64,000 nucleotides of DNA, from positions 165 through 64,164 of the forward strand of contig CAMAXE010000002.1 of NCBI GenBank assembly GCA_945862145.1, written 5' to 3'. How positions within the stretch are numbered: the first letter of the stretch is position 1; every line of letters begins with the position of its first letter. The notes under the pieces were generated by a model. That model was not told the DNA's origin. It worked only from the letters and a program-made list of their open reading frames with translations, and searched no databases. This DNA comes from Klebsiella pneumoniae. GTDB taxonomy: Bacteria; Pseudomonadota; Gammaproteobacteria; Pseudomonadales; UBA5518. Shown here in pieces: positions 42,050 through 64,000 of this stretch. The position numbers and the translations under genes are program-made.

Positions 42050-42057
42050 GGGGCAGG

Positions 42058-47607: not shown

Positions 47608-47798
47608 CACAGGATGTTGTTATCCGGAATGGCAGGACGACGCATGAGGGGCGGTTGCTCCTTAGGTTCATGCAGGGAATGTGTCGTGGCATGGAGGAAT
47701 TTTGCGCAGTTTTGTGCCGGGTGGGCAGCGCGTACACTACCGTCAGAGTTTAGATTGCGGCAGTCGTAACCTGAACGAATCCTGTGAACATACGCCAC

Positions 47799-48590: not shown

Positions 48591-49249
48591 TCATCGTCAA
48601 TAATGTATTCAAGCGATACCAAACCGATCATGGGCCGGGTCCCTGGGTGCTCCAGGGTGTGAGTTTCGTTATTCCGCCCCGCACCGGAGTGGGACTCATA
48701 GGCGCCAACGGGGCGGGAAAATCCACGCTGCTTCGCATCATTGGCGGCGTAGACCAGCCTACGCGGGGCCATGTCGAGAGGCAGTGCAGGGTGTCCTGGC
48801 CGATGGGCGGGGGTGGCTTGCAGAGAAGTCTCACGGGGCGGCAGAACGCAAAATTCGTCTGTCGTATCCACGGCCACGAGGACGACATACCCGAGCGCCT
48901 CGCGCAGATCGAGGCCTTTGCCGAGTTGGGGCGCGCGCTGGATGAACCGTTAAGCACGTATTCGAGCGGCATGAAATCCCGGTTACAGTTCGCACTGTCG
49001 CTCGCGTTTGATTTCGACATGTATATTTCAGATGAGGTTACGGGTGCAGGAGACGCGCGCTTCCGCAAGCGCGCTGCCGCTGCGTTCCGCGACTTGTCTG
49101 ACCGTGCGGGAATCATCATGGTCTCGCACGGTGAGGGTACGTTGCGAGAGTTCTGCTCCGCGGGGATCCTGCTCGAGCATGGCGTGGCACGGTGGTTTGA
49201 CGATATTGGCGACGCCCTGGCAGCCTACAAGGAAAACTCCGACGCATGA
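48587..49249 (+). CDS. kpsT: capsule polysaccharide ABC transporter ATP-binding protein
   Basis: GANGAGKSTLL, the KpsT-type signature YSSGMKSRLQFA, and Walker B FDMYISDE. ATGA overlap with kpsM. Confidence 0.9.
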   Translation: MIIVNNVFKRYQTDHGPGPWVLQGVSFVIPPRTGVGLIGANGAGKSTLLRIIGGVDQPTRGHVERQCRVSWPMGGGGLQRSLTGRQNAKFVCRIHGHEDDIPERLAQIEAFAELGRALDEPLSTYSSGMKSRLQFALSLAFDFDMYISDEVTGAGDARFRKRAAAAFRDLSDRAGIIMVSHGEGTLREFCSAGILLEHGVARWFDDIGDALAAYKENSDA

Positions 49250-50409
49250 ACAGTCCTCTGGACGATCGCACCCCGCGGAACAAGGCGCTGAAGGCCTTGG
49301 TAAAGTCCGCATTCTCGCTTGCGCGGCTTCCGCGCGGCATTTTCAGTGTTGCGATCGGATGCTCGCTTCTGGTGTCGGTCTATTGGCTGATTTTTGCATC
49401 GGATCTTTACGTGTCCGAGGCTCATGTGATCATCCAGCGCACCGAGCTGAACGGCTCAAGCACGCCTGACATAGGCAGTCTCCTCTCAGGGGCCGTCTCC
49501 GGTCCCAACGCATCGGATCAACTGCTGCTGCGTGACCACTTGCTCTCGCGCGATATGCTTGTAAATCTGGATGGGCGTCTCGAATTACGGAAGCACTTCA
49601 GTGATTGGCGCCGGGATCCTTTCTCGCGCACCTGGTTCGATGATATGCCTCTCGAGCGTTTCCAGGCCTATATGGCAGGCCGCATGCTGGTCGACTATGA
49701 CGAGTACACGGGCGTGCTAGTGATCCGGGCCCTGGCTTTCGATCCCGACACTGCGTACGCCATGGGTGCGGCTTTGGTGGAGGAAGGCGAGAGGCACATG
49801 AATGGCATGGCGCACGCGCTGGCCAATGAGCAAGTCGGTTTTCTTGAAGGGCAAGTGCGCCAGTTGAGCGAGCGCTCCATGGCGGCGCGGCGTTCTCTGC
49901 TGGACTTCCAGAACCGCAATGCGCTGTCGTCACCGGCGAGTGCGGCGCAGACTCTGGAGGGAATCATCGGGCGCATGGAGTCCCAGTTGTCGGATCTCCA
50001 GACCCGCAGGACCGCGCTGTTGGGGTACCTTGTGCCTGCCAGTCCGAGTGTCAAAGAGCTGGATTTGCAGATTGCGGCCACCCGGCAGCAAATCGATCTG
50101 GAGAGCAAGCGGCTCGCCTCACCGGATGGCAACACACTGAACCGTATGCTTGAGGAATATCAGCGGCTCGAGCTAGAAGCGGTTTTCGCGCAGGATTTGT
50201 ACAAGACGGCGCTCGCGGCCCTGGAGCGGGGCAGAATCGAGGCAATCCGTACGCTGAAGAAAGTCTCGGTGCTCCAGGCGCCGAGCCGTCCCGAATACCC
50301 GCTCGAGCCGCGGAGATTCTATAATTCTAGCGTATTCCTGCTGATCAGCCTGCTGGTGGCCGGGATACTCAACCTCGTCGTCGTCATCGTGCGCGACCAC
50401 AGAGACTGA
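49246..50409 (+). CDS. kpsE: capsule export inner-membrane protein (PCP-3, KpsE-like)
   Basis: N-terminal and C-terminal TM helices flank a coiled-coil periplasmic region. LYVSEAHVIIQR near TM1 and SVLQAPSRPEYPLEPRR near TM2 are typical of KpsE/CtrB. ATGA overlap with kpsT. Confidence 0.85.
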   Translation: MNSPLDDRTPRNKALKALVKSAFSLARLPRGIFSVAIGCSLLVSVYWLIFASDLYVSEAHVIIQRTELNGSSTPDIGSLLSGAVSGPNASDQLLLRDHLLSRDMLVNLDGRLELRKHFSDWRRDPFSRTWFDDMPLERFQAYMAGRMLVDYDEYTGVLVIRALAFDPDTAYAMGAALVEEGERHMNGMAHALANEQVGFLEGQVRQLSERSMAARRSLLDFQNRNALSSPASAAQTLEGIIGRMESQLSDLQTRRTALLGYLVPASPSVKELDLQIAATRQQIDLESKRLASPDGNTLNRMLEEYQRLELEAVFAQDLYKTALAALERGRIEAIRTLKKVSVLQAPSRPEYPLEPRRFYNSSVFLLISLLVAGILNLVVVIVRDHRD

Positions 50410-52145
50410 TGCTTATGAGGCGGTTCGCTCTTCTTCTCCTTTCACTGATCGCGGCGGCGCCGTTGACGGCCCAAGTCGATCCGGTTTTCTCCGGTGCTGC
50501 GCTGCTTGGTGCGCCGGCCGTCTCGGTGGATCAGACGGCTGTCGTCCCGGCTGCATCCCCTGAGTCGGCGGTAGTCACCACACAGATTCCTGCAGTCGCC
50601 ACGCCGGCTGCTGATTACCTCGGCAACCTCCGCAGTGATGTGTTCGGTGCCCAATTGTTCACCGGTCGTTTCGCGCGCGAGGGTGCCACACAGTTCAATC
50701 CGGACTACGCAATCTCGGTGGGAGACCGCATCCAGGTGCGTTTTTGGGGTGGGTTCGAATTCGACTCGCTGTTGACGGTGGACCCCAAAGGCAACTTGTT
50801 CCTGCCGCACGTTGGGCCGGTGCAGGTCCTTGGCGTCCGCAATCAGGATCTGCAGCGTGTCATGGAGTCTGCCGTGGCACAGGTGTTTCGCGCCAATGTT
50901 TACAGCTACGCCAGCCTTGCGGCAGCTCAGCCGGTGCGCGTCTTCGTGAGCGGATTTGTCAGCCGCCCCGGGCTCTACGACGGAACCAGCATGGACAGCC
51001 TGCTCCATTACCTCGATCTGGCGGGTGGCGTCGATCCGGAGCGGGGCACCTTTCTGGGCGTTCAGGTGAAGCGCGGCGACACGGTGCGCGCCCAGTTGAG
51101 TCTCTATGATTTTCTGCTCGAGGGCCGTATGCCCATGGTGCAGTTGGCTGATGGCGATGTGATTTTTGTGCCCGGTCGCGGAAACACCGTCTCGGTCACC
51201 GGGCTGGTGCAAAATCCGCGGCGCTTCGAGTTTGCCAGCGAGGCATTGCCCTTGAGCGAGCTCGAGAGACTCGCGAGGCCGCTCGCACAGGCCACACACC
51301 TCAGGGTCACGCGCAACAGCGGCAGCATACGAAATGTCGAGTATTACTCGCTCGAGGAAGCTGCGGGCGTTTCGCTTGGCAGTGGCGACACACTGGAGTT
51401 CACCGCCGACAAAAAGCCCGGGACGATAACGGTCCGTGTCGAGGGTGAGCACCTCAGCCCGCAGGAGTACGTGCTTCCCTATGGCGCCCGGATGGGCCAG
51501 TTGCTCACGAATATCCAGTATTCGGATCGCTCTGATCAGGGCAGTCTCCAGTTGTTCCGCAAGAGTGTGCAGGAACGACAGAAGCAGTTGCTGGACACCG
51601 CTCTGAAGAGTCTTGAGGCCGCGGCCCTCACAGCCCGCTCGGGTACGAGTGACGAGGCAAGGCTTCGCAAGGATGAGGCTGAACTCCTGTTGCAGTGGGT
51701 TGACCGCGCACGCAATATCCAGCCGCTTGGCCAGGTACTGATCGCGGCCGCGGCTTCGCGTGATGACCTGCTGCTGGAAAATGGCGATGTCATCAGGATT
51801 CCGGTCCGCGACGGACTCGTGCTGGTGAGCGGAGAGGTGTTGTTTCCCAACGCAATCGCCTTCGAGTCTGCGATGGAAATTCCCGACTATGTCCGGGGTG
51901 CGGGGGGCTACACGCAGAATGCCGATGCCGCGCGCATCGTGGTTGCACACCGTGACGGCAGCTTCGAGCAAGGCGGCGATAACGGGGGTGTGTTCGGTCG
52001 CGCGACTCCCGACCCCACCGTTCGTGCCGGCGATGAAATTCTTGTGTTGCCCAAAATCGACGTCAAGTCGCGACAAATCTGGAAAGATCTCACGCAAATC
52101 ATCTACCAGATTGCCGTCAGCGCCAGGGTGGTGGTCGACCTGTGA
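50409..52145 (+). CDS. kpsD: outer-membrane/periplasmic polysaccharide export protein (OPX, KpsD-like)
   Basis: Signal peptide MLMRRFALLLLSLIAAAPLTAQ. Poly_export segment (YAISVGDRIQVRFWG...DPKGNLFLPHVGPVQVLG) and SLBB-like repeats. 578 aa. Confidence 0.85.
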   Translation: MLMRRFALLLLSLIAAAPLTAQVDPVFSGAALLGAPAVSVDQTAVVPAASPESAVVTTQIPAVATPAADYLGNLRSDVFGAQLFTGRFAREGATQFNPDYAISVGDRIQVRFWGGFEFDSLLTVDPKGNLFLPHVGPVQVLGVRNQDLQRVMESAVAQVFRANVYSYASLAAAQPVRVFVSGFVSRPGLYDGTSMDSLLHYLDLAGGVDPERGTFLGVQVKRGDTVRAQLSLYDFLLEGRMPMVQLADGDVIFVPGRGNTVSVTGLVQNPRRFEFASEALPLSELERLARPLAQATHLRVTRNSGSIRNVEYYSLEEAAGVSLGSGDTLEFTADKKPGTITVRVEGEHLSPQEYVLPYGARMGQLLTNIQYSDRSDQGSLQLFRKSVQERQKQLLDTALKSLEAAALTARSGTSDEARLRKDEAELLLQWVDRARNIQPLGQVLIAAAASRDDLLLENGDVIRIPVRDGLVLVSGEVLFPNAIAFESAMEIPDYVRGAGGYTQNADAARIVVAHRDGSFEQGGDNGGVFGRATPDPTVRAGDEILVLPKIDVKSRQIWKDLTQIIYQIAVSARVVVDL

Positions 52146-54781
52146 TCCCACGGGGCTACCGCAAGCGGCTTGACCTTTGGGGTGGGCGGCTAACGCTGTT
52201 ACAGCTGGCTTTCGAGAGGCGCCTGTTGCATGCGGTAGGCCTGCGTGCTGCGTATCACCGGCGGGTGGCGCGGTTGGTGCGCGCTACCGGACTTTTCGAT
52301 GCCGGTTGGTACCTGGACTCCAATGCCGATGTTCTCGCCGATGGCGTGGACCCTTTGCTTCACTATGCGTCGCACGGGGATCGCGAAGGTAGACTGCCGA
52401 TGCCCCTGTTTGACCCGATGTTCTATCGGGCGCATGCGGGAGAGCTGGCGGCGGCGACCAATACCCTGCTGCACTACTGCCATGTAGGGCGTTTTCTGAA
52501 GAAACCGGCGAGTGCATGGTTCGATACCGAGTTCTACCTGCGACAGAACCGCGACGTTTCCAGAAGCCGTGCCGATCCCCTGCGTCACTACCTAGAGTGG
52601 GGTGGTGTGGAGGGCCGTTCGCCGTGCAAGGCATTTGATTCAGCGTTCTATCTTCGCAGCAATCCTGATGTTGCGCAGGCGGGAGTGAATCCGCTGCTTC
52701 ACTACCTGCGGTTCGGGCGTCGTGAGGGAAGACTGGTGACGGCCCTTGGTTTGCAGGATCTGGACGCGGTGGGCCTGCCGCTCCCGTATTCCGTCCCCGA
52801 GGGCTGGGAAAACGTGCCTCGAGCCTCAAGCCCCTCAGAGGCGCTTGTCGACGTGGTTGTGCCGGTGTTCAAGGGCCGACCCGAGACACTACGGTGCCTA
52901 CGCAGCGTGCTCGATTCCCGCAACGAGACGCCTTTCGAACTCGTTGTCATCGATGATGGAACCCCTGATCTGCAGTTGCGCGCCATACTCGCCGAGGGTG
53001 CAGAAGCCGGTCTTTTTACGCTGTTGTCCAACCAGGAGAACCTCGGCTTCGTTGCCACCGCCAATCGCGGCATGGAGCTGCATCCAGGGCGCGATGTCGT
53101 GTTGCTGAATGCCGATACCGAAGTCTTTGGCGACTGGATCGATCGTCTTCGTCGCGCTGCAGTGAGCGATCCGCATATTGCAACCGTGACGCCGCTTTCG
53201 AACAATGCCACGATCACCAGTTATCCCCGGTTTCTTCACGACAATCCGTATCCGCTCGAAATCTCCTTTCGGGAACTCGACGCTCTGACCGCGCGAGTCA
53301 ACGCCGCAACCCTTGTCGAGACGCCGACCGGGGTGGGCTTTTGCATGTATCTGCGCCGTGAGTGCCTCCGCGACATCGGCCTGTTCGACCTCGAGGCTTT
53401 TGGGCGTGGCTACGGAGAGGAGAACGATCTTTGCCAGCGAGCAATCCTGGCGGGATGGCGGAACGTGGTTGCAGCAAACATATTCGTGCATCACCTCGGC
53501 AGCGTGTCGTTTCAGGGCGAGCGCACTCGCCGTATCGACGCGGCCATGCGTGTTCTTGGGAGGCGTCATCCTGGCTATCACCGGGACGTGCGCGATTTCA
53601 TCGAGAGAGACCCTCTCGCCGAGGCCAGGCGCCGACTGGACTGGGCGCGCCTTGCCCGGGATGACGGCGAGAGCAGCGTGCTGATGGTTTGCCACAGCAG
53701 GGGTGGTGGTGCGGAGAGGGCCTTGCGCGAGGACGCGGCGCGGATCACAGCGGATGGCCAGAGCGTTTACTTTCTGCGGCCGGTTCCGGAGGTCCTTGAC
53801 AGCGTACAGATCTCGGATCCGCGGCAGCTTCAGCTCCCCAACCAGCCGTATTTCAGCCTTCAATCCCGCGGGGAGCTGGCTGAGGCGTTAAGGGTATTGC
53901 GCGTCTCGCGCATCCTTGTGCATGGCACTGTGGATTTCCCTCTGGCCGCGCCGGCTCAGCTGGTCGAGCTGGCGCGCGAGATCGGCGCTGAACTCGAGCT
54001 CGACATCCACGATTACCAAGTGTTGTGTCCCCGGATCAATCTGGCGGGCGAGGACGGCGTTTACTGTGGCGAGCCCGATGAGGCTGGGTGTAACGCGTGT
54101 CTGCTCAGCAACGGCAGCAAGTACAACGCGCGGAACATCAGCGAATGGCGTGCGGCTCACGCCGGGATGCTCGCTGCGGCATCTGTCGTGCGGGTTCCCG
54201 ACGCCGACGTGAGCGAAAGGCTGCTGCGCTATCACCCGGGACTCCCAATCGTGGTGGAGCCCCACGGTGATCTGGACCTGAGCCGTAACGGGCCTTTCGA
54301 TCCCCTGCTTGGGGACGGGGAGGCTCTGCATGTCGTGGTGATCGGCGCCATTGGCAAGATAAAGGGCTTTGAGCCGCTGTTGGGCTGCGCGCGTGATGCG
54401 CGCGAGCGCGGTCTGCCGCTGCGCTTTGCCGTGCTGGGTTACAGCATGGACGACGCGGCGTTGATTAGCGCCGGCGTTGCCGTCAGCGGTCGCTACCTGG
54501 AGCCAGAAGCCTCGCAGCGTCTGGCGGCGCTGGCGGCCCATCTCGTCTGGCTGCCGTCACTTTGGCCTGAGACTTTCAGTTATACCTTGTCTGTGGCCTT
54601 TGCATCGGGTCATCCTGTCTGGGCCTTTGACATAGGCGCCATTGCGCGTCGGTTGCGCGATATCGGTCGCGAACAGGCCTTGTTGTCGCTGGACTTGCAG
54701 GCTGATCCGCGCGCCATCAACGATCGTTTCCTCGCCTACCGAGAGCGCTGCGTTGCACGGCCGCGCGTGGTTGTGGCCTGA
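52142..54781 (+). CDS. multidomain glycosyltransferase: 4x ~37-aa N-terminal repeats + GT2 domain + C-terminal GT-B (group 1)-like domain
   Basis: GT2 core: VDVVVPVFKGRPETLRCLRSV...ELVVIDDGTPD...NLGFVATANRGM...VVLLNADTEV. The C-terminal ~360 aa has a Rossmann-like pattern (VLMVCHSRGGGAE...HVVVIGAIGKIKGFEPLL). The GTG start overlaps the kpsD stop. Confidence 0.85.
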   Translation: MIPRGYRKRLDLWGGRLTLLQLAFERRLLHAVGLRAAYHRRVARLVRATGLFDAGWYLDSNADVLADGVDPLLHYASHGDREGRLPMPLFDPMFYRAHAGELAAATNTLLHYCHVGRFLKKPASAWFDTEFYLRQNRDVSRSRADPLRHYLEWGGVEGRSPCKAFDSAFYLRSNPDVAQAGVNPLLHYLRFGRREGRLVTALGLQDLDAVGLPLPYSVPEGWENVPRASSPSEALVDVVVPVFKGRPETLRCLRSVLDSRNETPFELVVIDDGTPDLQLRAILAEGAEAGLFTLLSNQENLGFVATANRGMELHPGRDVVLLNADTEVFGDWIDRLRRAAVSDPHIATVTPLSNNATITSYPRFLHDNPYPLEISFRELDALTARVNAATLVETPTGVGFCMYLRRECLRDIGLFDLEAFGRGYGEENDLCQRAILAGWRNVVAANIFVHHLGSVSFQGERTRRIDAAMRVLGRRHPGYHRDVRDFIERDPLAEARRRLDWARLARDDGESSVLMVCHSRGGGAERALREDAARITADGQSVYFLRPVPEVLDSVQISDPRQLQLPNQPYFSLQSRGELAEALRVLRVSRILVHGTVDFPLAAPAQLVELAREIGAELELDIHDYQVLCPRINLAGEDGVYCGEPDEAGCNACLLSNGSKYNARNISEWRAAHAGMLAAASVVRVPDADVSERLLRYHPGLPIVVEPHGDLDLSRNGPFDPLLGDGEALHVVVIGAIGKIKGFEPLLGCARDARERGLPLRFAVLGYSMDDAALISAGVAVSGRYLEPEASQRLAALAAHLVWLPSLWPETFSYTLSVAFASGHPVWAFDIGAIARRLRDIGREQALLSLDLQADPRAINDRFLAYRERCVARPRVVVA
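52292..52732 (+). repeat. four tandem ~37-38-codon repeats within the glycosyltransferase N-terminus
   Basis: The four units are LFDAGWYLDSNADVLADGVDPLLHYASHGDREGR, LFDPMFYRAHAGELAAATNTLLHYCHVGRF, WFDTEFYLRQNRDVSRSRADPLRHYLEWGGVEGR and AFDSAFYLRSNPDVAQAGVNPLLHYLRFGRREGR. Confidence 0.8.
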
Positions 54782-54796
54782 GTCCGGAGCACACCT

Positions 54797-57274
54797 GTGA
54801 CCATGACTGACAATACTGGACGTTCTCTTGAATCGGGCAGGCCGGAGGAAGTCCGTGCGCATGTTGAGCTTGCGTTTGCTCCGAAAGCAGGCAGCTCTCT
54901 GCTTCTGATTGGCTGGATTTTTGACCCCGACAGTCAAGTCCGTGAATGGGCGTTGTACCCGCGCGTGGCTACTAAAGCCAGATCGCTGCATGAGGGCGTC
55001 GACGGTGTCAGGCTTGTCAGGATGCAGCGTGCCGATGTGGCGAAAGCCCTCTCACCGGGCTTTGATGCCGGCGCTGACTACGGGTTCCTGCTCTACCTGC
55101 CGGAGTGGACGTCAGGGTCATCGCTGGTGCTGTCGATTGATGGCGGTGGCGAGATGCCGCTGCGTATTCCGGCGCTGGCCTCGGTCGCTCAAGCGCTCGA
55201 CTGGATGCGCAGGTGCTGGGTGTCTATCGGGTTTGCTATCGTCGAGGTGTCCCGCGGGTGGCATGCGGACACCCTGGCGGTTGAAGGCCTGCGCGAACTC
55301 GTGGAGAGCCACCTCCCCGGCAACGATGGGAATCCTGCGGTCTGGCCTGAAGATTCGGTGCCATCACAGGGTTCCACCGGGCACCTGTCTCCTGGGGTGG
55401 CTAGCGACACCACAGTCAGGGATTTCCCCAGACCTGTCAGGCGGGGCGAGGTTCTTGCGAACGTTGAAATTGCCTTCGCCCCGGAGGTAGGACGCTCGCA
55501 ATTTCTGATGGGCTGGGTCTTTGACCCCGGCAACAAGGTGTGCGAGTGGGTGTTGTACCCGGGCGCCGCTGCTGAGGGTCGCTCGCTGGTTGAAGGCCGC
55601 GGGGGCGTCAGGCTACTCAGGATGCAGCGTGCCGACGTGGCGGCATCGTGGGCGCCCGGCTCCGAGACCTCCGCGGACCACGGGTTCCTGCTCTACCTGC
55701 CCGAAATACCCGAAGGCGCATTGGTGGTGCTGTTGTTTGAAGACGGTGGCCAGATGCCGCTCAGAGTTCCTGCGTTGGCCGCACCGGCTCGGGCACTGGG
55801 TTGGCTGCGCACGCGCTGGGAATGGGCTGGGCCGGCCGTCGCGGAGGTGTCTCGCGGCTGGCGCGCGCCCCCCTGGTTAGTTGAGGGGCTGCGCGACTTG
55901 GCGGAAGCACAATCCTGGCGGGATCATGGGCAGCGTCCTACGTGGATCGAGGAGCCGGGACTTTTCCACGGTTCCATCGATTACGCTTACCCCTTGGGGG
56001 AGCGCGGTCTGTTTATAGTTGGTTGGTTCGCCTGTAGCGCAGGCCCTGTACATGGGCTGCACGTGCTCACCTCCGAGGGTGTGGAACTGGACATCCTGCC
56101 CTCGGCGACGAGGCTTTACCGCGCCGATGTCCTGGCGAGGGTGGAGTCGCGATTCGTGCGCGACAACATGCTTGGTTTTCTGTGTCTCGTCCCGTTTTCA
56201 GTAGCCCCTGGCGATCGGGTGGTCTTGCGCGTCGATCTCGGAGTCATCGGAGAGCGCAGATTGCGTGTGCCGACGCATCGGGTGTCGATTCCCGGCGTTG
56301 CTCTCGCCAAGGAGCTGCTTTGGAGCATCCCCTCGGCGGATCGCTTGCGGCCGGTGCTTCACGAGGTGTTCGAGAGCGGTCTTGGCGATCTCATCGAGTC
56401 CCTCGTGGCGGCAGAGCCGCAGCAGCAGCCTATCGTGCGGGAGCGCCAGTTCGGGGAGCCTCCGGTGGCACCATGTGCCAGCGTAGTGGTGCCTTTGTAC
56501 GGGCGGTTCGACTTTTTGCGGCATCAACTCGCGCACTTCTCCGACGACCCGGAGTTTTCCAATATCGACCTGATATACGTGATCGATGACCCCACGATCA
56601 TCGGTGCCGTCCACGATTACGCAGCGCATTACTATCCAATTTTCGGGAGACCGTTCAGGCTGATCTCGTGTGGCAGGAATTTGGGTTTCGCGGGTGCCAA
56701 CAATCTGGGCGTCGCCCACGCGCGCGCGGCAACCCTTGTACTCCTGAATTCCGACGTGATCCCACAGCACGCGGGCTGGGTGGGCCAGCTGATCGAAGCA
56801 TTGGCGACGCTGCCCCGTGCTGGCGCAGTCGCGCCATTGCTGCAGTTCGGAGACGGCGGTGTGCAGCACGCCGGGATGCTGCCGCGCCGGGATCCGGCGC
56901 TCCCAGGCTTTCTCATGAACACCCACCCCATGAAAGGCCAACCCTGGCGTGGCGGCGACTCTCCTTCGTGGCAGGCGTTGCTCACCGGAGCCTGTCTCTG
57001 TCTGCGCCGCGTTGATTACGAAGCCTGCGGCGGTTTTGACGAGGGATATCTGGTCGGAGATTTCGAGGATAGTGACCTGTGCCTCAGGCTTCGCGGGCGC
57101 GGGCACGACCTCTGGCTGGTCCCCAGTGCCCGCCTCTGGCACCTTGAGCGTCAATCGCAGGTCATCGACAGTATCGAGGGGCCGCGCGCCCTGATTACCC
57201 TTTTCAATGCCTGGCGTTACGGGCGCAAAATACGGCGTGGCGAACTGTTTGATCCTGAGAGCCGCGGAGATTGA
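54797..57274 (+). CDS. glycosyltransferase family 2 protein with three N-terminal copies of an uncharacterised ~150-200-aa domain
   Basis: C-terminal GT2: ASVVVPLYGRFDFLRHQL...LIYVIDDP...NLGFAGANNLG...LVLLNSDVIP...GGFDEGYLVGDFEDSDLCLRLR. GTG 54797 is 8 nt after GGAG; ATG 54803 is the alternative start. Confidence 0.85.
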   Translation: MTMTDNTGRSLESGRPEEVRAHVELAFAPKAGSSLLLIGWIFDPDSQVREWALYPRVATKARSLHEGVDGVRLVRMQRADVAKALSPGFDAGADYGFLLYLPEWTSGSSLVLSIDGGGEMPLRIPALASVAQALDWMRRCWVSIGFAIVEVSRGWHADTLAVEGLRELVESHLPGNDGNPAVWPEDSVPSQGSTGHLSPGVASDTTVRDFPRPVRRGEVLANVEIAFAPEVGRSQFLMGWVFDPGNKVCEWVLYPGAAAEGRSLVEGRGGVRLLRMQRADVAASWAPGSETSADHGFLLYLPEIPEGALVVLLFEDGGQMPLRVPALAAPARALGWLRTRWEWAGPAVAEVSRGWRAPPWLVEGLRDLAEAQSWRDHGQRPTWIEEPGLFHGSIDYAYPLGERGLFIVGWFACSAGPVHGLHVLTSEGVELDILPSATRLYRADVLARVESRFVRDNMLGFLCLVPFSVAPGDRVVLRVDLGVIGERRLRVPTHRVSIPGVALAKELLWSIPSADRLRPVLHEVFESGLGDLIESLVAAEPQQQPIVRERQFGEPPVAPCASVVVPLYGRFDFLRHQLAHFSDDPEFSNIDLIYVIDDPTIIGAVHDYAAHYYPIFGRPFRLISCGRNLGFAGANNLGVAHARAATLVLLNSDVIPQHAGWVGQLIEALATLPRAGAVAPLLQFGDGGVQHAGMLPRRDPALPGFLMNTHPMKGQPWRGGDSPSWQALLTGACLCLRRVDYEACGGFDEGYLVGDFEDSDLCLRLRGRGHDLWLVPSARLWHLERQSQVIDSIEGPRALITLFNAWRYGRKIRRGELFDPESRGD
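54863..55909 (+). repeat. in-frame tandem duplication, period exactly 600 nt (two ~447-nt units plus linker)
   Basis: Unit 1 (54863-55309) encodes VELAFAPKAGSSLLLIGWIFDP...VRLVRMQRADVA...YGFLLYLPE...MPLRIPALA...VEVSRGWHA...VEGLRELVES. Unit 2 (55463-55909) encodes VEIAFAPEVGRSQFLMGWVFDP...VRLLRMQRADVA...HGFLLYLPE...MPLRVPALA...AEVSRGWRA...VEGLRDLAEA. Confidence 0.85.
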
Positions 57275-57275
57275 T

Positions 57276-58505
57276 ATGCGCGTCGTGGTATTCAGCCATG
57301 GTCATCCCACCTTCAACAAAGGTGGCGGAGAAATAGCTGCGTGGAATCTTTACCGCGCCATCGACGCGGCGCCCGGTCACGACGCCTGGTTCATTGCCCG
57401 CAGCGAACGGGCGAATATGCATCTCGGGGCTCACGTCGCGATGCTTGGCGAGCGTGAATTCCTGGTTTCGGGACAAGCCGACTGTGCCGAGTTGAGCGCC
57501 ACGATACCCTTGGATGACGACAGCGATTTTGTCACGCTGCTGCGTGCCATCGATCCGGACGTGCTGCATTTCCATCATTACTACCTGCTTGGACTCGAAA
57601 CGATAAGAGCCGCTCGCCGCGCCTGCCCTCGGGCGCGGATCGTGCTCACGCTGCATGACTACATGGGTATCTGCGCCAATATGGGGCAGATGCTGAAGAC
57701 GAGCGGGACGCTTTGTCATCAGGCAAGCCCGCGCGAGTGCGCGCAGTGCTTTCCCGATCGCAGCCCCGAAGATTTCTTCCTGCGAGAGCGCTATGTTCGC
57801 AATCATTTCGCGCTTGTCGATGATTTCATATCGCCGAGTCGATTCCTGGCGGGGCGTTATGCCGAGTGGGGATTACCGCCCGATCGCCTTCATGTGATCG
57901 AGAACTGCCTTGTCGGCGGAGTCCGGCCACCGTCGCGTGCTATCGCTCCCGGGGAAGGACGCAGCCGCTTCGCCTACATCGGCCAGATCAATCCCTTCAA
58001 GGGCGTCGATCTGGTTCTCGAGGCTTTTGCACGACTGCCGCGCCGTGTTCGTGAGCGGGTCACGCTTGACGTCTATGGGGCGGGTCTTGAGTTGCAAACC
58101 GCGGCATACCGCAGTCGTGTTGATGCACTGCTGGCAGAATCCGGGCGGACGGTACAACTGCATGGAGCCTATGATCAGCGAGAGATTGGCGCCATCCTTG
58201 GTGCGATCGACTGGGTCGTGATGGGCTCTGTCTGGTGGGAAAACTCTCCGCTGGTGATTCAGGAGGCGCACCAATACGGTCGTCCGGTTATTTGTCCTGA
58301 TATCGGCGGTATGTCCGAGAAGGTCGAGGAAGGTGTGGGAGGGCGTAAATATCGCGCGGCCGACGCAGCTTCTTTGGCCTCGCTTGTCGCAAGCGTGCAA
58401 GCCGACGAGACAGGCTACGAAGCGCTGTGCGCCCGGCTGCCAACCCCCGCAGGCTCGGAGGCCTGCGTGCGCAGCCATCTATCGGTATACGGGCCTCGGT
58501 CATGA
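57276..58505 (+). CDS. glycosyltransferase family 4 (GT-B, group 1)
   Basis: MRVVVFSHGHPTFNKGGGEIAA...LHFHHYY...AYIGQINPFKGVDLVLEAF...WWENSPLVIQEAHQYGRPVICPDIGGMSE gives an EX7E-type motif. Confidence 0.85.
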   Translation: MRVVVFSHGHPTFNKGGGEIAAWNLYRAIDAAPGHDAWFIARSERANMHLGAHVAMLGEREFLVSGQADCAELSATIPLDDDSDFVTLLRAIDPDVLHFHHYYLLGLETIRAARRACPRARIVLTLHDYMGICANMGQMLKTSGTLCHQASPRECAQCFPDRSPEDFFLRERYVRNHFALVDDFISPSRFLAGRYAEWGLPPDRLHVIENCLVGGVRPPSRAIAPGEGRSRFAYIGQINPFKGVDLVLEAFARLPRRVRERVTLDVYGAGLELQTAAYRSRVDALLAESGRTVQLHGAYDQREIGAILGAIDWVVMGSVWWENSPLVIQEAHQYGRPVICPDIGGMSEKVEEGVGGRKYRAADAASLASLVASVQADETGYEALCARLPTPAGSEACVRSHLSVYGPRS

Positions 58506-59593
58506 GCGAGGCTCCGCCCGTTCCCGAAACTCCGCCGGCGCTCAGACTGGTGCTGCACGTGGGGGATGGCAAGACGGGCACCAGTTCCATCCAGCAGACT
58601 TTGCGCGAACAGCCTGAGAAGCTCCGTCGCCACGGTTTCCGGTATCTGGGTTTGATGCTCGAATTCGCGCCCGTGATCCATTATCACTGGCAGGATCCGC
58701 GTCGCGCAGAGGTTTTCTTGCGACTCGATCGCTCGCTCGCCACGCAACAGTTGCTGGAGGTACTGCATGATGCGATTGCGTCGGCCCGTGCCGATGGGAT
58801 CCACACGCTTCTCTGGAGCAACGAGGCGTTCTTCGGTCGTATGGTAAATATTGATAGCTGTCTCGAGGTTCTTCAATCCGAGGGCATAGAGCTTTCGTTG
58901 GTGGCCTATGTGCGGCGCCATGACGCCTGGCTGCGTTCGGCGTATTCCCAATGGGGAATCAGGAATAAGACCTATCAGGGGCCGCTGAAGCCCTTCCGCG
59001 AGTGGTTCGGGATGCGAAAAAAGCGCTTTGTTCCTGCCTTGGCGGGCCTCGAAAAACGTTTTCCCGGATGCCTGCGCGTGCGCAATATGGACTCCCTGGG
59101 CGACACTCTCGCGGATTTTATCGGATTGGTCGGGCTTTCCGGCTGCGGGCTCACCATGCGCCGTCGCAACGAGGCTGCCGTGGGGGCAGAACTCGTGCTG
59201 CGTGCGGCGCTCAACAATCTTTTTGACGGCCACGTCACTCCCTATAGATTTGCCGAGTTGTTGGGGAAGGGGTTGACGTTCAACACGACCGCCGCCGAGC
59301 GACTTCAGGCGCTGCTGCCCGGGTTGGACGAGCTGCGTGGAGCGCGAGATCAGTGCAACGCGGATCGCGAGGCGCTCGATCAGATTCTCGCCGCTCACGA
59401 TCAGCCCCCGATCATGCTAGGCGAGCTCCCGCCGAAGCCGGTCGACGTGAACGAATCCGCGCTGCTGTTGACGTTGTGCGACATTGTGCTCAGGCAAGCA
59501 GTGCGTATCGAGGCGCTCGAGAAACAAATGCCCTCGCTGCTTGCGGGTGCGCCTCCGCCACCCGGGTCCGATGGGAGGTCGGCAGATGCCTGA
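58502..59593 (+). CDS. sulfotransferase-fold protein, paralog 1 (putative polysaccharide sulfotransferase)
   Basis: LVLHVGDGKTGTSSIQ (P-loop resembling the PAPS 5'-phosphosulfate loop), WSNEAFF, and AYVRRHDAWLRSAY (3'-phosphate-type segment). ATGA overlap with the GT4 gene. Confidence 0.6.
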   Translation: MSEAPPVPETPPALRLVLHVGDGKTGTSSIQQTLREQPEKLRRHGFRYLGLMLEFAPVIHYHWQDPRRAEVFLRLDRSLATQQLLEVLHDAIASARADGIHTLLWSNEAFFGRMVNIDSCLEVLQSEGIELSLVAYVRRHDAWLRSAYSQWGIRNKTYQGPLKPFREWFGMRKKRFVPALAGLEKRFPGCLRVRNMDSLGDTLADFIGLVGLSGCGLTMRRRNEAAVGAELVLRAALNNLFDGHVTPYRFAELLGKGLTFNTTAAERLQALLPGLDELRGARDQCNADREALDQILAAHDQPPIMLGELPPKPVDVNESALLLTLCDIVLRQAVRIEALEKQMPSLLAGAPPPPGSDGRSADA

Positions 59594-60401
59594 GGCGCAG
59601 GGCGTCCCGTCGCGGCCCGTTTTCGTGATATCCAGTGGGCGCTCGGGTAGTACGCTGGTGCAGAGGCTGCTCAATTGTCACCGCGGGCTCGTCGTTTGGG
59701 GGGAGCACTTCGGATTTTTGGAGGCGGCAGCGAGCGCGTTGGCGCACATGCATAACCCCGAGCAAAAGCATTACCCCATGAGTCCTGTCTCCAACCGGGG
59801 GCTGGCTCACCTCCAGCGTGGACTGAGCGATCCGGCCGCTGCGCTTGAATGGGTCAATCCCTGGTCTGCGGAGGAATACGCGCAGCAGCTGCGGTCTTTT
59901 ACGGAGGGATATTTCGCCGCTCGCGTTCCGGCAGGCCGGCGATGGGGTTTCAAGGAGATTCGCTATAACGGCATGGCTTCGCTGCGCGGACTGATGTTGC
60001 TCTATCCACACGGCCGTTTTGTTTTCGTGCAACGGGACATCGTCGAGGTGACGCGCAGCAAGGTCTACGCCTTCGTCAAGGAATCTAACTGGGTCCAGCT
60101 CTCCCCGGCGCAGCAGCGCCATCGCCTGCGAGGGATGCTGGTCGAAGTACACAGGCACTATCAGGTTTACGACCGGTTCATGCGTCGCTACCCCGGTGTG
60201 GGATTGCGCCTCGATTATGAAACCCTTTTGGCTGCGCCCGACACGGAGATCGCGCGGGTGTTGGCTCATCTTGAGCTTGATCCGTCAGCCTTTGATGGCG
60301 TGCTTGCCGAACAGGTAATGGCCAGCACCATCACCAGCACCCGCCGCGATGAGGGGCTGCTAAGGATGATCCGTGAGGTGCTGGCTCAACTGCCGTCATG
60401 A
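59586..60401 (+). CDS. sulfotransferase family protein
   Basis: PVFVISSGRSGSTLVQRLL (classical PSB loop), FVFVQRDIVEVTRSKV (3'PB-type), about 270 aa. GGGAGG RBS. The start overlaps the previous stop (ATGCCTGA). Confidence 0.8.
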   Translation: MPEAQGVPSRPVFVISSGRSGSTLVQRLLNCHRGLVVWGEHFGFLEAAASALAHMHNPEQKHYPMSPVSNRGLAHLQRGLSDPAAALEWVNPWSAEEYAQQLRSFTEGYFAARVPAGRRWGFKEIRYNGMASLRGLMLLYPHGRFVFVQRDIVEVTRSKVYAFVKESNWVQLSPAQQRHRLRGMLVEVHRHYQVYDRFMRRYPGVGLRLDYETLLAAPDTEIARVLAHLELDPSAFDGVLAEQVMASTITSTRRDEGLLRMIREVLAQLPS

Positions 60402-60857
60402 GTCGGGTTCGCGATCTCCGGTGCGACAAGCAAGGGGGTCTGCTGCGTTCATGATGTTCGGGTGCGATGTGCAAGCTATCCGGGGCAACGGGTTAATGAT
60501 GGTTCTCGCCAGGTCTGGACGCGTGTCTGCCGGATGGCCTCTGGCAGGTATAAGTAGAAATTCGAGCTCTTCTTGGTCTCGACTGGGATCGTGTCCTGCA
60601 CTTTGAGTGTGCTGGGCTGACCGGATGCTGAGCCGTGCGCGACTTCTGTTCTCGCCTTGGGATAAACTTCGGCGAGGGGCCTCGCGTATTCCTGATGAAA
60701 AGCGGCGACTGCCGTCTGTGTGAGTACCAAGTAGCGGTAGTTCGATGTGGCTTCCCGAGAGGCTATCAGTGCCCGGTGTCGCACGGTCGCGAAGACCGCC
60801 CCAAACGAGCTGCTGCAGCCAATCAAATATTTTCAAATCAAACTGGAGGAGCGACGT

Positions 60858-61133
60858 ATGAACATCACCGATTTCGTAGCGGCCGTGGTTGCGGGCGGCG
60901 CAGCGGGACTCGACAAGGTTCCGGAGAAGCGGCTTACGCAAGTGGTCGTGGCCACACTGCGGACGCTCGGCGCGCAGATCGATGCCGCCCCCGAAGGTGA
61001 GACGGTACGCGTTCCGGCTCTGGGCAGTTTCACGGCCAAGGACGTCACCAACAAGGATGGTCGAATGGTGCGCCGCGTGCAGTTTCGTCGCGCGGCATCG
61101 AAGCCGAACGATGCGGCTCCCAATGCGACGTGA
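60858..61133 (+). CDS. small HU/IHF-fold-like protein (putative DNA-binding), 91 aa
   Basis: Strong GGAGGAG RBS 7 nt upstream of the ATG. MNITDFVAAVVAGGAAGLDKVPEKRLTQVVVATLRTLGAQIDAAPEGETVRVPALGSFTAKDV...VRRVQFRRA follows the HU layout: helix-turn-helix body, then G-x-V-x-[LV]-x-G-x-G-x-F and a shortened beta-arm. Confidence 0.5.
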   Translation: MNITDFVAAVVAGGAAGLDKVPEKRLTQVVVATLRTLGAQIDAAPEGETVRVPALGSFTAKDVTNKDGRMVRRVQFRRAASKPNDAAPNAT

Positions 61134-61187
61134 GCAGCTGCCGCATCCTCGCTCGATGGGAGGATCGCACATGACCGTCATTCGTCC

Positions 61188-62219
61188 ATGATCTACGCTC
61201 AAGATGGCCGCGAGGCACGAAGTCGGTTGTTCTTGCATATAGGCATGAACAAGACCGGAAGCTCTGCCATTCAGCGGTGGCTTGCTGCGAATGCGGGAAA
61301 ACTCGCTGTTGCGGGTGTCTTGTACCCGCTAGCCGGGCGCCGAGGTGATGCTCATTACGGGCTCAGCCAAGCTCTCGGCTTCGCTCATGGAAGGCGAGTG
61401 CCGGACCAGCTCGAACTCGCGGCGTTGCGTGATGGGCTGCTCCGCGAGCTGTCGCAGCACCCGACCGGTAATGTGGTCCTCAGCTCTGAGGACTTCGTGC
61501 TTGGGGGTGACCCTGCCGTCGTTCGCGATTTTCTGGCCGAGTTCGACGTGCGTGTCGTGGTGTACTTCAGGCGGCACGACCACTGGTGGCTTTCGGTCTA
61601 CAATCAGGCGGTGAAAATGGTCGCGGAGCCGCCGTGGGAGAGTGGCATTCAAGCCTACCTCGCGTTTTGCCGCTCGCGGCGCAATCGCCCGGGGCGCTAC
61701 CGCGCGCTTGTGGACCGCTGGGCAGCTGTGTTTGGCGCTGACCGTGTGATCGTGCGGCCCTTCGAACAGGCGCAGAACCCCGGCGGTGTGGCTTCGGATT
61801 TCCTGCGTGCGATCGGGCAGGAAGAGCTTTCCTTAGAGGCGGCGAGTTCTCCGGAATGGGTGAATGCCTCTCTGGGTGCAGAGACCCTGCAGGTGCTCGA
61901 TCTGCTTCAGCGCGCCGAGCTTGATTCCGACTCGCGTGAATTACTAAAGCAGCGGCTCTTGGTTGCCGGTGCAGGCGAAGCCCCTGCAAATCTGATGCGG
62001 CCGCGGCTGCGTCGCCGGCTGATCGACGAAAACCTCGGCGACTATGAGTATATTGCCCGGCGTTATCTGGGGCGGGATGACGGGGTTCTGTTCCAGGAGC
62101 CGATACCTGACCGGATGAACCCTGGGAAGCGCCCGGACAGCCAAGCAGAGCCCGTCTCGTCACGCTCATTGCCAGGCTCATGGCGCAGTGAGACCGGTCT
62201 CTTGCACGCCGACAGGTGA
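61188..62219 (+). CDS. sulfotransferase-fold protein, paralog 2
   Basis: LFLHIGMNKTGSSAIQ, LSSEDFV and VVYFRRHDHWWLSVY. Same architecture as 58502-59593. Confidence 0.6.
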   Translation: MIYAQDGREARSRLFLHIGMNKTGSSAIQRWLAANAGKLAVAGVLYPLAGRRGDAHYGLSQALGFAHGRRVPDQLELAALRDGLLRELSQHPTGNVVLSSEDFVLGGDPAVVRDFLAEFDVRVVVYFRRHDHWWLSVYNQAVKMVAEPPWESGIQAYLAFCRSRRNRPGRYRALVDRWAAVFGADRVIVRPFEQAQNPGGVASDFLRAIGQEELSLEAASSPEWVNASLGAETLQVLDLLQRAELDSDSRELLKQRLLVAGAGEAPANLMRPRLRRRLIDENLGDYEYIARRYLGRDDGVLFQEPIPDRMNPGKRPDSQAEPVSSRSLPGSWRSETGLLHADR

Positions 62220-62225
62220 CTTGCC

Positions 62226-63335
62226 GTGACTCTGCGTTGTGTCCTGCATGTGGGAATGCCCAAATGTGGCAGCAGTGCCTTGCAGACGGCGTTGTCACTC
62301 AATCCCGAACTGTCGCCGATCGGCGCTGCGCCCGGTGCAAGGTACATGGCGCTGCGGGCCTCAGGCGATCTGATTTTCGGGCCTGAGGTGCTTGCCCGGG
62401 CGGTCGAGACCCCATGTGGTTACCTCGCGAGCGCCCGACTGTCTCAACTCGCGGCACTTGGGGATCGCGCTCTGCGACGCATCGGCGAGGAAATGACCTG
62501 TGCCGCTGCAGGGTCCGTGGTCGTGTTGTCCAGAGAAGGTTGGGGCAATGGGTCGCGGGGCTTTCAGGAGCAAAGAATCCTCCAACGGCTTGGTCTGGAG
62601 GTCGAGGTGGTGATGTACGTCAGGCCACAAGTCGCCTGCTGCAACTCGGCCTGGTGGCAGTGGGGAGCCTGGGGCGGAGCGCCTTTGCCGCGTTGGGTGA
62701 AAGGCCACGTCGAGCGTGTGCAGTGGGGGCAGGTGGCGCGAGCGTGGGCGGAGGTTCCGGGCGTGCTGGCCGTGCGTCCGCGCCTGCTGCCAAGCAATAT
62801 CGTTGCTGATTTTTGTGCGCTGCTTGGCGTTGCGGCCCCGGGTGAGGCGGTCGTCAACCCTGGCCTTTCGGGGTCGGTACTTCGTTTGTTTCAGCGTCAT
62901 CGCAGTCTGCGCCCGGGGCCCCAAGATTCCGCTATCGAGTTCGCACTAGGCCGTCATCTCCAGTACGCGGGCGAGCCCACGCCGTGGGTGCTCGGTCCAG
63001 GTTTGGTGCGCCGCATCATCGACGGCTGTCGTGTGAGCAACGAAGCCCTGCTTGATCTCATGGATCCGGCGGATGCGCAACGGATGCGGGCTGATCCCGC
63101 TTGGTGGTCTGCTGCACACTGGGCCGGGCGTGACGTCCTGCCCTGGCAGGTGCCCGCTGCGGAAGCCTCTGAGAGCGATGCGCTTGCGGCAGCTGCCATC
63201 GCAGCGTTGCAACGACTCGATAAATCACACCGTGAATTGCTTGCCCAAGCCGTGCGTCAGGTTCCTGTAAACGCCGAACAGGGCGCGGTAACGTCTCTGC
63301 TTAGCCTGTTCGGGAGAGGCCGGCGAGATGGCTGA
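62226..63335 (+). CDS. sulfotransferase-fold protein, paralog 3
   Basis: GTG start. CVLHVGMPKCGSSALQ, LSREGW and VMYVRPQVACCNSAW. The most divergent of the three paralogs. Confidence 0.55.
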   Translation: MTLRCVLHVGMPKCGSSALQTALSLNPELSPIGAAPGARYMALRASGDLIFGPEVLARAVETPCGYLASARLSQLAALGDRALRRIGEEMTCAAAGSVVVLSREGWGNGSRGFQEQRILQRLGLEVEVVMYVRPQVACCNSAWWQWGAWGGAPLPRWVKGHVERVQWGQVARAWAEVPGVLAVRPRLLPSNIVADFCALLGVAAPGEAVVNPGLSGSVLRLFQRHRSLRPGPQDSAIEFALGRHLQYAGEPTPWVLGPGLVRRIIDGCRVSNEALLDLMDPADAQRMRADPAWWSAAHWAGRDVLPWQVPAAEASESDALAAAAIAALQRLDKSHRELLAQAVRQVPVNAEQGAVTSLLSLFGRGRRDG

Positions 63336-64000
63336 TGCCCAAGGTCCCGATGAGCTTTCTCCGGGCTAGCCTCCGCCGCGTGGTGGGGCTGCGCGCCGCA
63401 GCCAAGACCTTGCCTGCCACGGGGCCGCTGCCTGGCCATCCTGGACGATCGCTGACCGTACTGTCGCCAGGGGTTATCCCGAGTACTGACTATTACTTCC
63501 GCTCACGCTTGGATCCAGGCGTGCCACTGCGCATCGTGGACACACTGGCTCAGCGCCCGCAGCGCGGGGATCTTGACGGCTGTGATGTGGTGGTCGTGCG
63601 TCATGCCCCTGCTGACTGGCTGCGCTTGCTTGCTCGCGAACGCAGTGCGCTTGGTCGGGTTGTGTTGTTCATGGATGACGATCTTCCTGCGGCGGTGACC
63701 GCAGAGGATCTGCCTTTGCGATATGCGCTGCGAACGTCCTGGCGTCACGCCCTGACGTGCCGATTGCTGAGCGGAGTCTGCGATCAGATCTGGGTGTCGA
63801 CTCCCGAATTGCGGCGTCGCTATGGCCAGTTTGGCGTGCAGTTGTTGCCGCCGCTATGGTTTGAGGCAGGTGCTGTGGATCCGGCGTTGGCCGAACCCGT
63901 GGGACAGGACTGGTTCTACCACGGTACCGCGGCGCATCGACGCGAGATCGAGTGGCTGTTGCCCATCGTTCGGGAGGTGCAGGATGCGCTGCCGCAGGCT
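63335..64000 (+). CDS. hypothetical protein (5' part only; runs off the window), possibly a further polysaccharide-modifying enzyme
   Basis: Absent from the ORF track because it has no stop in the window. My own translation from ATG 63335 (overlapping the previous TGA) is open for 222 codons to position 64000: MPKVPMSFLRASLRRVVGL...VVVVRHAPADWLRLL...VLFMDDDLPAA...IWVSTPELRRRYG...WFYHGTAAHRREIEWLLPIVREVQ. Confidence 0.6.
   Translation, partial: MPKVPMSFLRASLRRVVGLRAAAKTLPATGPLPGHPGRSLTVLSPGVIPSTDYYFRSRLDPGVPLRIVDTLAQRPQRGDLDGCDVVVVRHAPADWLRLLARERSALGRVVLFMDDDLPAAVTAEDLPLRYALRTSWRHALTCRLLSGVCDQIWVSTPELRRRYGQFGVQLLPPLWFEAGAVDPALAEPVGQDWFYHGTAAHRREIEWLLPIVREVQDALPQA

Follow-up and report, generated by a model that had tools for sequence, protein, structure and literature searches.

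In this work we describe four neighboring sulfotransferase-type genes, here called A, B, C and D, in a stretch of 64,000 nucleotides of DNA from Klebsiella pneumoniae (contig CAMAXE010000002.1 of assembly GCA_945862145.1; the whole stretch is referred to as the window). The genes lie in the central, serotype-specific region of a group-2/3-like capsule locus of the type dependent on an ATP-binding cassette (ABC) transporter (Kps). B is a classical sulfotransferase. A, C and D are distant paralogs of each other and very likely belong to the superfamily of sulfotransferases that use 3'-phosphoadenosine 5'-phosphosulfate (PAPS). Overall, we consider it probable that the four enzymes together carry out a PAPS-dependent sulfation of this capsule, which would then probably be sulfated at several positions.

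All four open reading frames (ORFs) named in an initial annotation of this DNA are present on the + strand, and the segments quoted there were found in their translations. A (58502-59593, 363 amino acids), C (61188-62219, 343 amino acids) and D (62226-63335, 369 amino acids) encode divergent sulfotransferases with a Lys-type loop. They carry the N-terminal loop segments LHVGDGKTGTSSIQ, LHIGMNKTGSSAIQ and LHVGMPKCGSSALQ, the S-x-E segments WSNEAFF, LSSEDFV and LSREGW, and the Y-[VF]-R segments AYVRRHDAWLRSAY, VYFRRHDHWWLSVY and MYVRPQVACCNSAW. In residue numbers, the motifs are H19-x-G21-x-x-K24-T-G26-T-S-S, S106-x-E108 and R138-x7-S146 in A, H17-I-G19-x-x-K22-T-G24-S-S, S99-x-E101 and R128-x7-S136 in C, and H8-V-G10-x-x-K13-C-G15-S-S, S102-x-E104 and R133-x7-S141 in D, which ends in long C-terminal helices. 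B (59586-60401, 271 amino acids) is of the Arg type, with the classical loop FVISSGRSGSTLV (SSGRSGSTLV) and the 3'-phosphate motif R-D-I-V-E-V-T-R-S. The ATG of A sits within a longer ORF that begins with GTG at 58427. The start of C varies in public gene calls, which give 273, 334 or 343 amino acids; with the 273-residue call the phosphosulfate-binding loop is lost, and this call is almost certainly too short.

The proposed paralogy of A, C and D is borne out by similarities well beyond chance, both in BLASTP and in hhalign comparisons. Pairwise BLASTP gave 27-29% identity (A-C 3e-6, A-D 7e-10, C-D 3e-6). Relatives were collected and aligned for each family (n=118 for D, n=20 for A and n=72 for C), and the resulting family alignments matched each other over nearly their full length (D vs C families, E=6.3e-30; D vs A families, E=6.2e-28). 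All 118 relatives of D are annotated as hypothetical and lack Pfam domains, and none of the only 20 relatives found for A has a protein name. In the C family, three relatives with a match to PF00685 and two that UniRef names 'sulfotransferase domain' are the exceptions to this labelling. A, C and D each fall into a separate orthologous family in which 30-60% identity is kept across genera, arguing for distinct, maintained functions.

B was readily assigned, in agreement with its earlier description as a classical sulfotransferase. It matches the Pfam model Sulfotransfer_3 with E=1.7e-20 and 74.6 bits against a cut-off of 27, and weak matches to Sulfotransfer_1, Stf0 and NoeE were also obtained. 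Its loop is of the Arg type (S-G-R-S-G-S-T) that is typical of Sulfotransfer_3. A phmmer search of B against PDB sequences returned chance matches only. When the profile of the C family was aligned with the single sequence of B by hhalign, only the 24 residues of the loop were aligned, with a probability of 5%. Thus, B is related to A, C and D at the level of the superfamily only.

The placement of A, C and D was obtained from profiles. A joint profile of the three families matched the sulfotransferase 3rnl in the PDB with E=1.3e-12 in two stretches. The first is the loop, with iGmgKTGSSAlQ of the profile aligned against VGAAKCGTSSLD, and the second comprises the 3'-phosphate motif and the C-terminal half, with YvRrqdewlnSaY aligned against MLRNPVDRAFSAY. 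The next PDB matches over the 3'-phosphate motif are four sequences of cytosolic sulfotransferases (SULTs; E 0.18-0.28). Other weak matches of the joint profile (a centriole protein, a DEAD-box helicase and ferritins) align elsewhere, and no kinase is among them. Of the single families, C matches 3rnl over the R-x7-S motif and the C-terminal half (E=1e-8) and D over the loop (E=0.018). With the A-family profile alone, a sequence search of the PDB gave no sulfotransferase, so that A is linked to the superfamily only through the D and C profiles and its predicted structure. Furthermore, when 43 members of the C family were scanned singly at E<=0.1, Sulfotransfer_1 was matched by 19 of them (best E-value 9.8e-7), Sulfotransfer_4 by 12 and Sulfotransfer_3 by four. 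The sulfotransferase fold proposed in the initial annotation is thus backed by profile matches, by structure predictions and by the PAPS-synthesis genes found next to relatives, as described below.

Conservation is highest in the columns of these three segments, both within each family and in the joint alignment. In the latter, the Ser and Glu of S-x-E are invariant, and the H, G, K, G and Q of the loop and the Y, R and S of Y-x-R...S are at least 90% conserved. In A, B, C and D alike, the loop (HVGDGKTGTSS, SSGRSGST, HIGMNKTGSS and HVGMPKCGSS, respectively) corresponds to the strand-loop-helix element expected for binding of the 5'-phosphosulfate. The loop of A, C and D had been called unusual, a description that does not hold, as it aligns residue for residue with the loop VGAAKCGTSSL of 3rnl. 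Judged from its sequence, it is a canonical Lys-type 5'-phosphosulfate-binding loop, G-x-x-K-x-G-S/T-S/T, in which the one clade-specific feature is a nearly invariant His two positions ahead of the Gly. Its Lys precedes the last Gly, as in sulfotransferases, in contrast to the Walker A pattern G-x4-G-K-S/T. An R-x7-S motif for the 3'-phosphate is likewise present in all four proteins, and in A, C and D it aligns with LRNPVDRAFS of 3rnl and with the same motif of the cytosolic SULTs. The central Asp of this motif (PF00685 pattern RxxxDxxxS) is at +3 instead of +4 in A and C and is absent from D.

In mouse estrogen sulfotransferase, the corresponding residues are K48, H108, R130 and S138, with His108 at the end of the strand that precedes the Arg130 strand. 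By analogy, A, C and D would have the same order of residues and the same R-to-S spacing, with Glu replacing His. The features that define sulfotransferases are the 5'-phosphosulfate loop, an Arg/Ser pair for the 3'-phosphate and a general base that is either His or Glu (PMC11625862). In structure predictions, S-x-E (S102/E104 in D) ends the strand before the strand of the Arg, and its invariant Glu is the likely candidate for the catalytic base.

Structures of A and D were predicted with AlphaFold2. The D model reached a mean predicted local distance difference test (pLDDT) value of 93.5 and a predicted template modelling score (pTM) of 0.88, and the A model a pLDDT of 84. Foldseek searches of the PDB, the check that had been suggested, returned sulfotransferases first for both models. 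For D, ranks 1-8 are sulfotransferases with E-values from 6e-4 to 3e-3 (3rnl, a schistosome SULT, a tyrosylprotein sulfotransferase (TPST) and the sulfotransferase domain of CurM), and for A the same is true of ranks 1-10 with E-values from 4e-5 to 5e-4 (TPST1/2, an insect SULT and 3rnl). Both models thus match the sulfotransferase fold, albeit weakly. In the models, the loop lies between beta1 and a helix, and S-x-E ends the next core strand. The Arg ends the strand following that of S-x-E, and the Ser is found within the helix that comes after it. This order of elements is the one described for the 5'-phosphosulfate-binding and 3'-phosphate-binding (PSB/PB) architecture (PMC11625862). When compared to 3rnl, the models have about 70 extra residues inserted after the loop helix and ahead of the S-x-E strand, as well as long C-terminal helices.

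3rnl, a structural-genomics entry from Alicyclobacillus acidocaldarius that resembles Sulfotransfer_1/3 proteins, is the only solved protein with a significant match to the A/C/D profile. We know of no published function for it. Like A, C and D, it has a Lys-type loop, an R-x7-S motif (LRNPVDRAFSAY) and a collinear C-terminal half. It ranks first in the Foldseek search for D and ninth for A, where it has the highest target-normalised template modelling (TM) score of the top ten. The proteins differ from it in sequence (13-16% identity), in overall structure (TM 0.32-0.47) and by the insertion and the C-terminal helical extension. The combination of a Lys or Arg loop followed by G-T/S-T/S, an R...S motif and a Glu base is also known from the N-sulfotransferase domain of NDST, from 3-OST (Sulfotransfer_1) and from the TPSTs. 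These are eukaryotic Golgi enzymes, and they have no detectable pairwise sequence similarity to A, C or D. Because of the insertion, the Glu of A, C and D is placed differently with respect to the loop than in the heparan-sulfate-type enzymes and TPSTs, and the equivalence of the Glu residues would follow from topology.

The capsule context that had been proposed for the four genes was found on both sides of them. The locus begins with a kpsM-like gene for the ABC-2 permease of a capsule exporter (47784-48590; Pfam ABC2_membrane, E=1.4e-12), followed on the same + strand by a kpsT-like gene for the ABC ATPase (48587-49249; ABC_tran, E=4.5e-16; start as called on the identical contig L001), a kpsE-like gene for an inner-membrane/periplasmic adaptor (49246-50409) and a kpsD-like gene for an outer-membrane polysaccharide export protein (50415-52145; Poly_export, SLBB and SLBB_2). 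The Kps exporter is thereby represented by all its components. The kpsE-like product lacks a Pfam match and was assigned by its place between kpsT and kpsD and by homologs at the same position in kps loci of Thiocystis and Allochromatium (phmmer E ~1e-80). Three + strand glycosyltransferase genes separate kpsD from A, namely GT2a (52142-54781; Glycos_transf_2, E=7.5e-15), a large family 2 glycosyltransferase (GT2) with short N-terminal repeats and a long C-terminal extension, GT2b (54797-57274; Glycos_transf_2, E=9.5e-11), a second large GT2 with internal N-terminal repeats, and GT4 (57276-58505; Glycos_transf_1 and Glyco_transf_4; 409 amino acids with the start from contig gene calls), an enzyme of the GT-B fold. 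D is followed by a gene for a 356-residue protein, GTx, the 5' part of which lies within the window (63335-64000, + strand). The window stops 666 nucleotides into GTx, and the remainder was read from two metagenome contigs that are identical to the window (L001 and L002). On these contigs, GTx is directly followed by genes for the two 3-deoxy-D-manno-octulosonate (Kdo) transferases, kpsC (659 amino acids) and kpsS (421 amino acids), both with a Capsule_synth domain (PF05159), and then by a gene for an RTX-like protein.

The gene order is therefore kpsM-T-E-D, GT2a, GT2b, GT4, A, B, a small HU/IHF-like ORF, C, D, GTx, kpsC, kpsS. Thus, the locus is a complete, ABC transporter-dependent and KpsC/KpsS-primed capsule system, with four glycosyltransferase-type and four sulfotransferase-type genes in its variable region. 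No kpsF or kpsU gene for the supply of cytidine monophosphate-activated Kdo was seen among the annotated genes of the locus, although no search was aimed at them; they may sit elsewhere in the genome, by analogy with what is reported for Vibrio sp. KMM 8419. The genes are tightly packed. The ATGA of A overlaps the stop codon of GT4, B overlaps A by 8 nucleotides, D begins 6 nucleotides past C, and GTx starts on the last base of D, as fits genes of an operon that are co-translated. GTx was considered as a fifth paralog and rejected, as it has neither the sulfotransferase loop nor the other motifs; it has no Pfam match on record and is read here as glycosyltransferase-like.

Species-representative genomes were scanned for D-family genes, and the ORFs of the resulting 66 loci were searched with the family hidden Markov models and with the other proteins of the window. 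The best identity to the window locus in these genomes is 44%. The loci span Alpha-, Beta- and Gammaproteobacteria, Campylobacterota, Desulfovibrionaceae, cyanobacteria, Acidobacteria, Verrucomicrobia, Anaerolineae, Balneola and one actinomycete. At least two paralogs occur in 15 of them (one split gene not counted) and at least three in five. A cassette of the order GTx-D-C-GT2a is found next to kpsC/kpsS in Thiocystis (two loci), Allochromatium, Thioalkalivibrio, Marinobacterium and Keguizhuia, and kpsMTED is also present beside it in the Thiocystis and Allochromatium loci. GTx homologs flank D- or C-family genes in eight other loci, close homologs of GT2a adjoin such genes in many (E down to 1e-291), and the order GT2b-GT4-A is repeated in a locus from Campylobacterota (L037). 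In view of these two recurrent arrangements, the window locus looks like a combination of two glycosyltransferase-sulfotransferase modules.

With E. coli CysC, CysN and CysD as queries, cysC alone or cysD/cysN/cysC was detected within 10 kb of a D-family gene in six of the 66 loci. A rough model predicts about 0.7 such loci by chance (Poisson P ~7e-5). In Thioalkalivibrio, cysC is located between GTx and kpsC. This association is the strongest evidence available, though indirect, for a PAPS dependence of the clade. As a separate observation, the neighbors of the D-family genes from Rhodobacteraceae, Aquisalinus, Synechococcus and Prochlorococcus in loci L023, L036, L055 and L070 are not capsule genes and include a lipoate ligase, a GDSL esterase, an FAD oxidase and a type-I secretion ABC/HlyD pair.

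A mechanism can be proposed on this basis. A, B, C and D would be soluble cytoplasmic enzymes that bind PAPS, gripping its 5'-phosphosulfate with the strand-loop-helix G-x-x-K/R-x-G-S/T-S/T and its 3'-phosphate with the strand-turn-helix R-x7-S. The S-x-E Glu of A, C and D, located where the neighboring beta-strand ends, would be the general base that takes a proton from a sugar hydroxyl (or amine), which would then attack the sulfur in line, with the transition state stabilised by the loop Lys. The glycan would be grown on the Kdo-lipid primer made by KpsC and KpsS, sulfated in its nascent or completed form on the cytoplasmic face by four enzymes that differ in regio- or residue-specificity, and then exported via KpsMT-KpsED. 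In this scheme we infer PAPS as the donor, the capsule as the acceptor, Glu as the base and, as in the initial annotation, one position per enzyme.

Several observations weigh against this proposal. In direct scans against Pfam and NCBIfam, A, C and D hit no sulfotransferase model even at E<=1 (matches to LysC and YjeF_N in these scans were at chance level), so that their membership in the superfamily rests on the profile-to-PDB and profile-profile links. The fold matches are weak (TM 0.3-0.47, E 4e-5 to 3e-3), P-loop kinases (zeta toxin, PFK-2, adenylate kinase) rank close behind the sulfotransferases, and the clustering of K, E, R and S in space is deduced from topology only. The E. coli CysC, CysN and CysD queries found no PAPS-synthesis genes in the 64-kb window. 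Many D-family genes elsewhere (Rhodobacteraceae, cyanobacteria) lie outside recognisable capsule or polysaccharide loci, and the acceptors of the clade are therefore probably diverse. Finally, no paper characterising the clade of A, C and D was found in the literature.

Alternatively, A, C and D could be ATP-using, P-loop kinase-like phosphotransferases, or another nucleotide-dependent transferase, adding phosphate or another group to the glycan. Sulfotransferases and nucleotide kinases have a common fold, A, C and D themselves pass no sulfotransferase threshold of Pfam, and zeta-toxin/PezT (a UDP-GlcNAc kinase), PFK-2, adenylate kinase and deoxycytidine kinase come just below the sulfotransferases in Foldseek. 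With such weak TM scores and kinases so close behind, a fold search alone would not separate the two groups of enzymes; the motifs do. The loop Lys stands before the last Gly, unlike in Walker A, the conserved R-x7-S has its aligned counterpart in the 3'-phosphate motif of 3rnl and of the cytosolic SULTs, the PDB profile matches over the catalytic core are all sulfotransferases, and PAPS-synthesis genes are enriched beside the relatives. Phosphotransfer is thus very unlikely. The initial annotation had left two placements open, an uncharacterised sulfotransferase clade or another nucleotide-dependent transferase, of which the former is supported, while the latter loses ground since the P-loop kinases rank lower as folds and do not share the motifs.

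A somewhat stronger alternative, yet still an unlikely one, is that A, C and D are PAPS-dependent sulfotransferases whose acceptor is not the capsule repeat but the lipid-Kdo anchor or some other glycolipid, a small metabolite or a protein, any capsule sulfate then coming from B at most. The D-family genes that often occur without capsule or glycosyltransferase neighbors (e.g. beside a membrane transporter and a lipoate ligase in L023, or near the type-I secretion ABC/HlyD pair in L070) would be in line with this, as would the protein-tyrosine and small-molecule sulfotransferases among the best fold matches. The genes of the window, however, are embedded with overlapping or near-abutting frames in the glycosyltransferase block of a kps locus, the GTx-D-C-GT2a cassette is kept beside kpsC/kpsS across at least six genera, and relatives are fused to GT2 and GT4 domains. 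It is also improbable, to a degree between these two alternatives, that at least one paralog is catalytically dead or redundant and serves as a scaffold or as a chain-length or regulatory subunit, in which case the number of genes would overstate the number of sulfated positions. Multi-paralog loci are common (at least three copies in 5/66, and up to four tandem domains per polypeptide), such arrays often contain degenerate copies, and the long C-terminal helices of A and D could mediate assembly. Against this stands the retention of H, G, K, G, S/T-S, Q, S-x-E, Y-x-R and S in all three proteins, as well as their distribution over separate orthologous families that keep 30-60% identity across genera. 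Sulfation of the capsule by four active enzymes remains the reading that we favor.

Two groups of known systems can be compared with the locus. Vibrio sp. KMM 8419 and Cobetia marina KMM 1449 produce chemically proven sulfated capsules from Kps-type clusters (PMC11641403, PMC11766843). Like the window, these clusters combine kpsMTED (and kpsS/kpsC), glycosyltransferase genes and sulfotransferase genes, but they hold one to three sulfotransferase genes compared to the four found here. They also have their own cysDN/cysC (and cysQ) and sugar-nucleotide genes, neither of which the window locus has within 64 kb. The second group are the rhizobial glycan sulfotransferases, which are the classical examples of bacterial enzymes of this kind. 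NodH, NoeE, LpsS and the KpsS of Mesorhizobium loti, all of the Sulfotransfer_3 type, carry out PAPS-dependent sulfation of surface or secreted glycans. B resembles them in its Arg-type loop (R-S-G-S-T), its Sulfotransfer_3 match and its weak match to NoeE; for NodH, an R-x-G loop is described (PMC11625862). B is far below the equivalog cut-offs of NoeE (17.6 vs 500 bits) and Stf0 (13.8 vs 400 bits) and is thus an ortholog of neither. A, C and D differ from the rhizobial enzymes in being of the Lys type and in not matching those models.

The size of the clade was assessed with a profile run exhaustively against 1.84 billion representative proteins (clusters at 50% identity), which yielded 44,231 matches at E<=1e-3, 29,826 at E<=1e-10 and 8,560 at E<=1e-30. 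The clade thus comprises at least 8,560 clusters at the strictest of these values. Among the best-scoring matches are polypeptides of up to 1,676 amino acids with two to four A/C/D-type domains in tandem, and several such multi-copy relatives exceed the Pfam gathering thresholds for Sulfotransfer_1/_4 (41.1, 54.0 and 33.9 bits). In other relatives, the domain is fused to GT2, GT4 or S-adenosylmethionine-dependent methyltransferase domains, which points to glycan modification. From their domain composition, the tandem and fused relatives (P0238-P0243, P0251, P0283 and P0324) look like multi-site glycan-modifying enzymes.

Sulfated Kps-type capsules and sulfotransferase genes in capsule loci were already known. 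What is new here is limited to the assignment of three 'hypothetical' proteins and their motifs to a large, divergent sulfotransferase clade for which neither a dedicated family model nor a characterised member exists, and to the presence of four such genes in one locus. We can only tentatively suggest that A, C and D represent three lines of orthologs within a very large clade of bacterial glycan sulfotransferases that have a Lys-type loop and a Glu base, are often built from two to four tandem domains or fused to glycosyltransferases, and are missed by current family models. If this is true, bacterial polysaccharide sulfation would be far more common than annotation suggests, the locus described here would build a heparin-like capsule with up to four sulfated positions, and GTx-D-C-GT2a would be a portable 'sulfated backbone' cassette common to purple sulfur bacteria, Thioalkalivibrio and others. 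Sulfated polysaccharides are wanted as heparin-like or otherwise bioactive materials, and to our knowledge only a few bacteria that produce them, and a very small number of bacterial sulfotransferases acting on glycans, have been described. With a family model made from the A, C and D alignments, thousands of genes would receive a new annotation and candidate producers of sulfated capsules would be flagged; the animal bias of the Pfam seeds hides bacterial polysaccharide sulfotransferases (PMC11625862). The compact kps locus with its four sulfotransferases and four glycosyltransferases would furthermore be a tractable system for the assignment of regiospecificity.

Some additional features of the locus and its surroundings were recorded. 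The gap of 786 bp between B and C, in which a scan for promoter and terminator consensus sequences found nothing, holds the small ORF (60858-61133, + strand, 91 amino acids), which the gene calls of the metagenome contigs include. Its product has weak similarity to Bac_DNA_binding (E=0.031) and himA (E=0.071). Homologs with 33-35% identity that keep the VP-LG-F-K-V arm are located directly upstream of a D-family gene in two unrelated genomes (L009, 6806-7129, and L022, 9510-9860). Based on these similarities, the HU/IHF-like protein may be a locus-specific DNA-binding regulator. In GT2b, two clear N-terminal repeats of about 200 amino acids (ELAFAPKAGSS...LYLPEW and EIAFAPEVGRS...LYLPEI) precede the GT2 domain, and a third, degenerate copy is possible. 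GT2a has four short N-terminal repeats of the type FD..FYL..NPDV...G.NPL.HY...G..EGR and about 400 amino acids past its GT2 domain that have no Pfam match. The RTX-like protein encoded after kpsS (L001, 19377-21092) has at least 883 amino acids and weak matches to HemolysinCabind (RTX repeat).

The G+C content is 0.65-0.70 over positions 1-40000, the housekeeping part of the window (topA, mfd, gap, lolCDE, comEC, xseA and rimO), and 0.60-0.64 over 40000-64000, which comprises genes for chemotaxis and cyclic di-guanosine monophosphate (c-di-GMP) signalling and the capsule locus. This drop fits a horizontal acquisition of the locus. Directly upstream of kpsM, a signalling protein of 1,263 amino acids with the domains MASE1-CHASE-PAS-GGDEF-EAL is encoded (43781-47572, + strand), preceded by a CheR methyltransferase gene (41986-42948). 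The signalling protein may link c-di-GMP signalling to the expression of the capsule.

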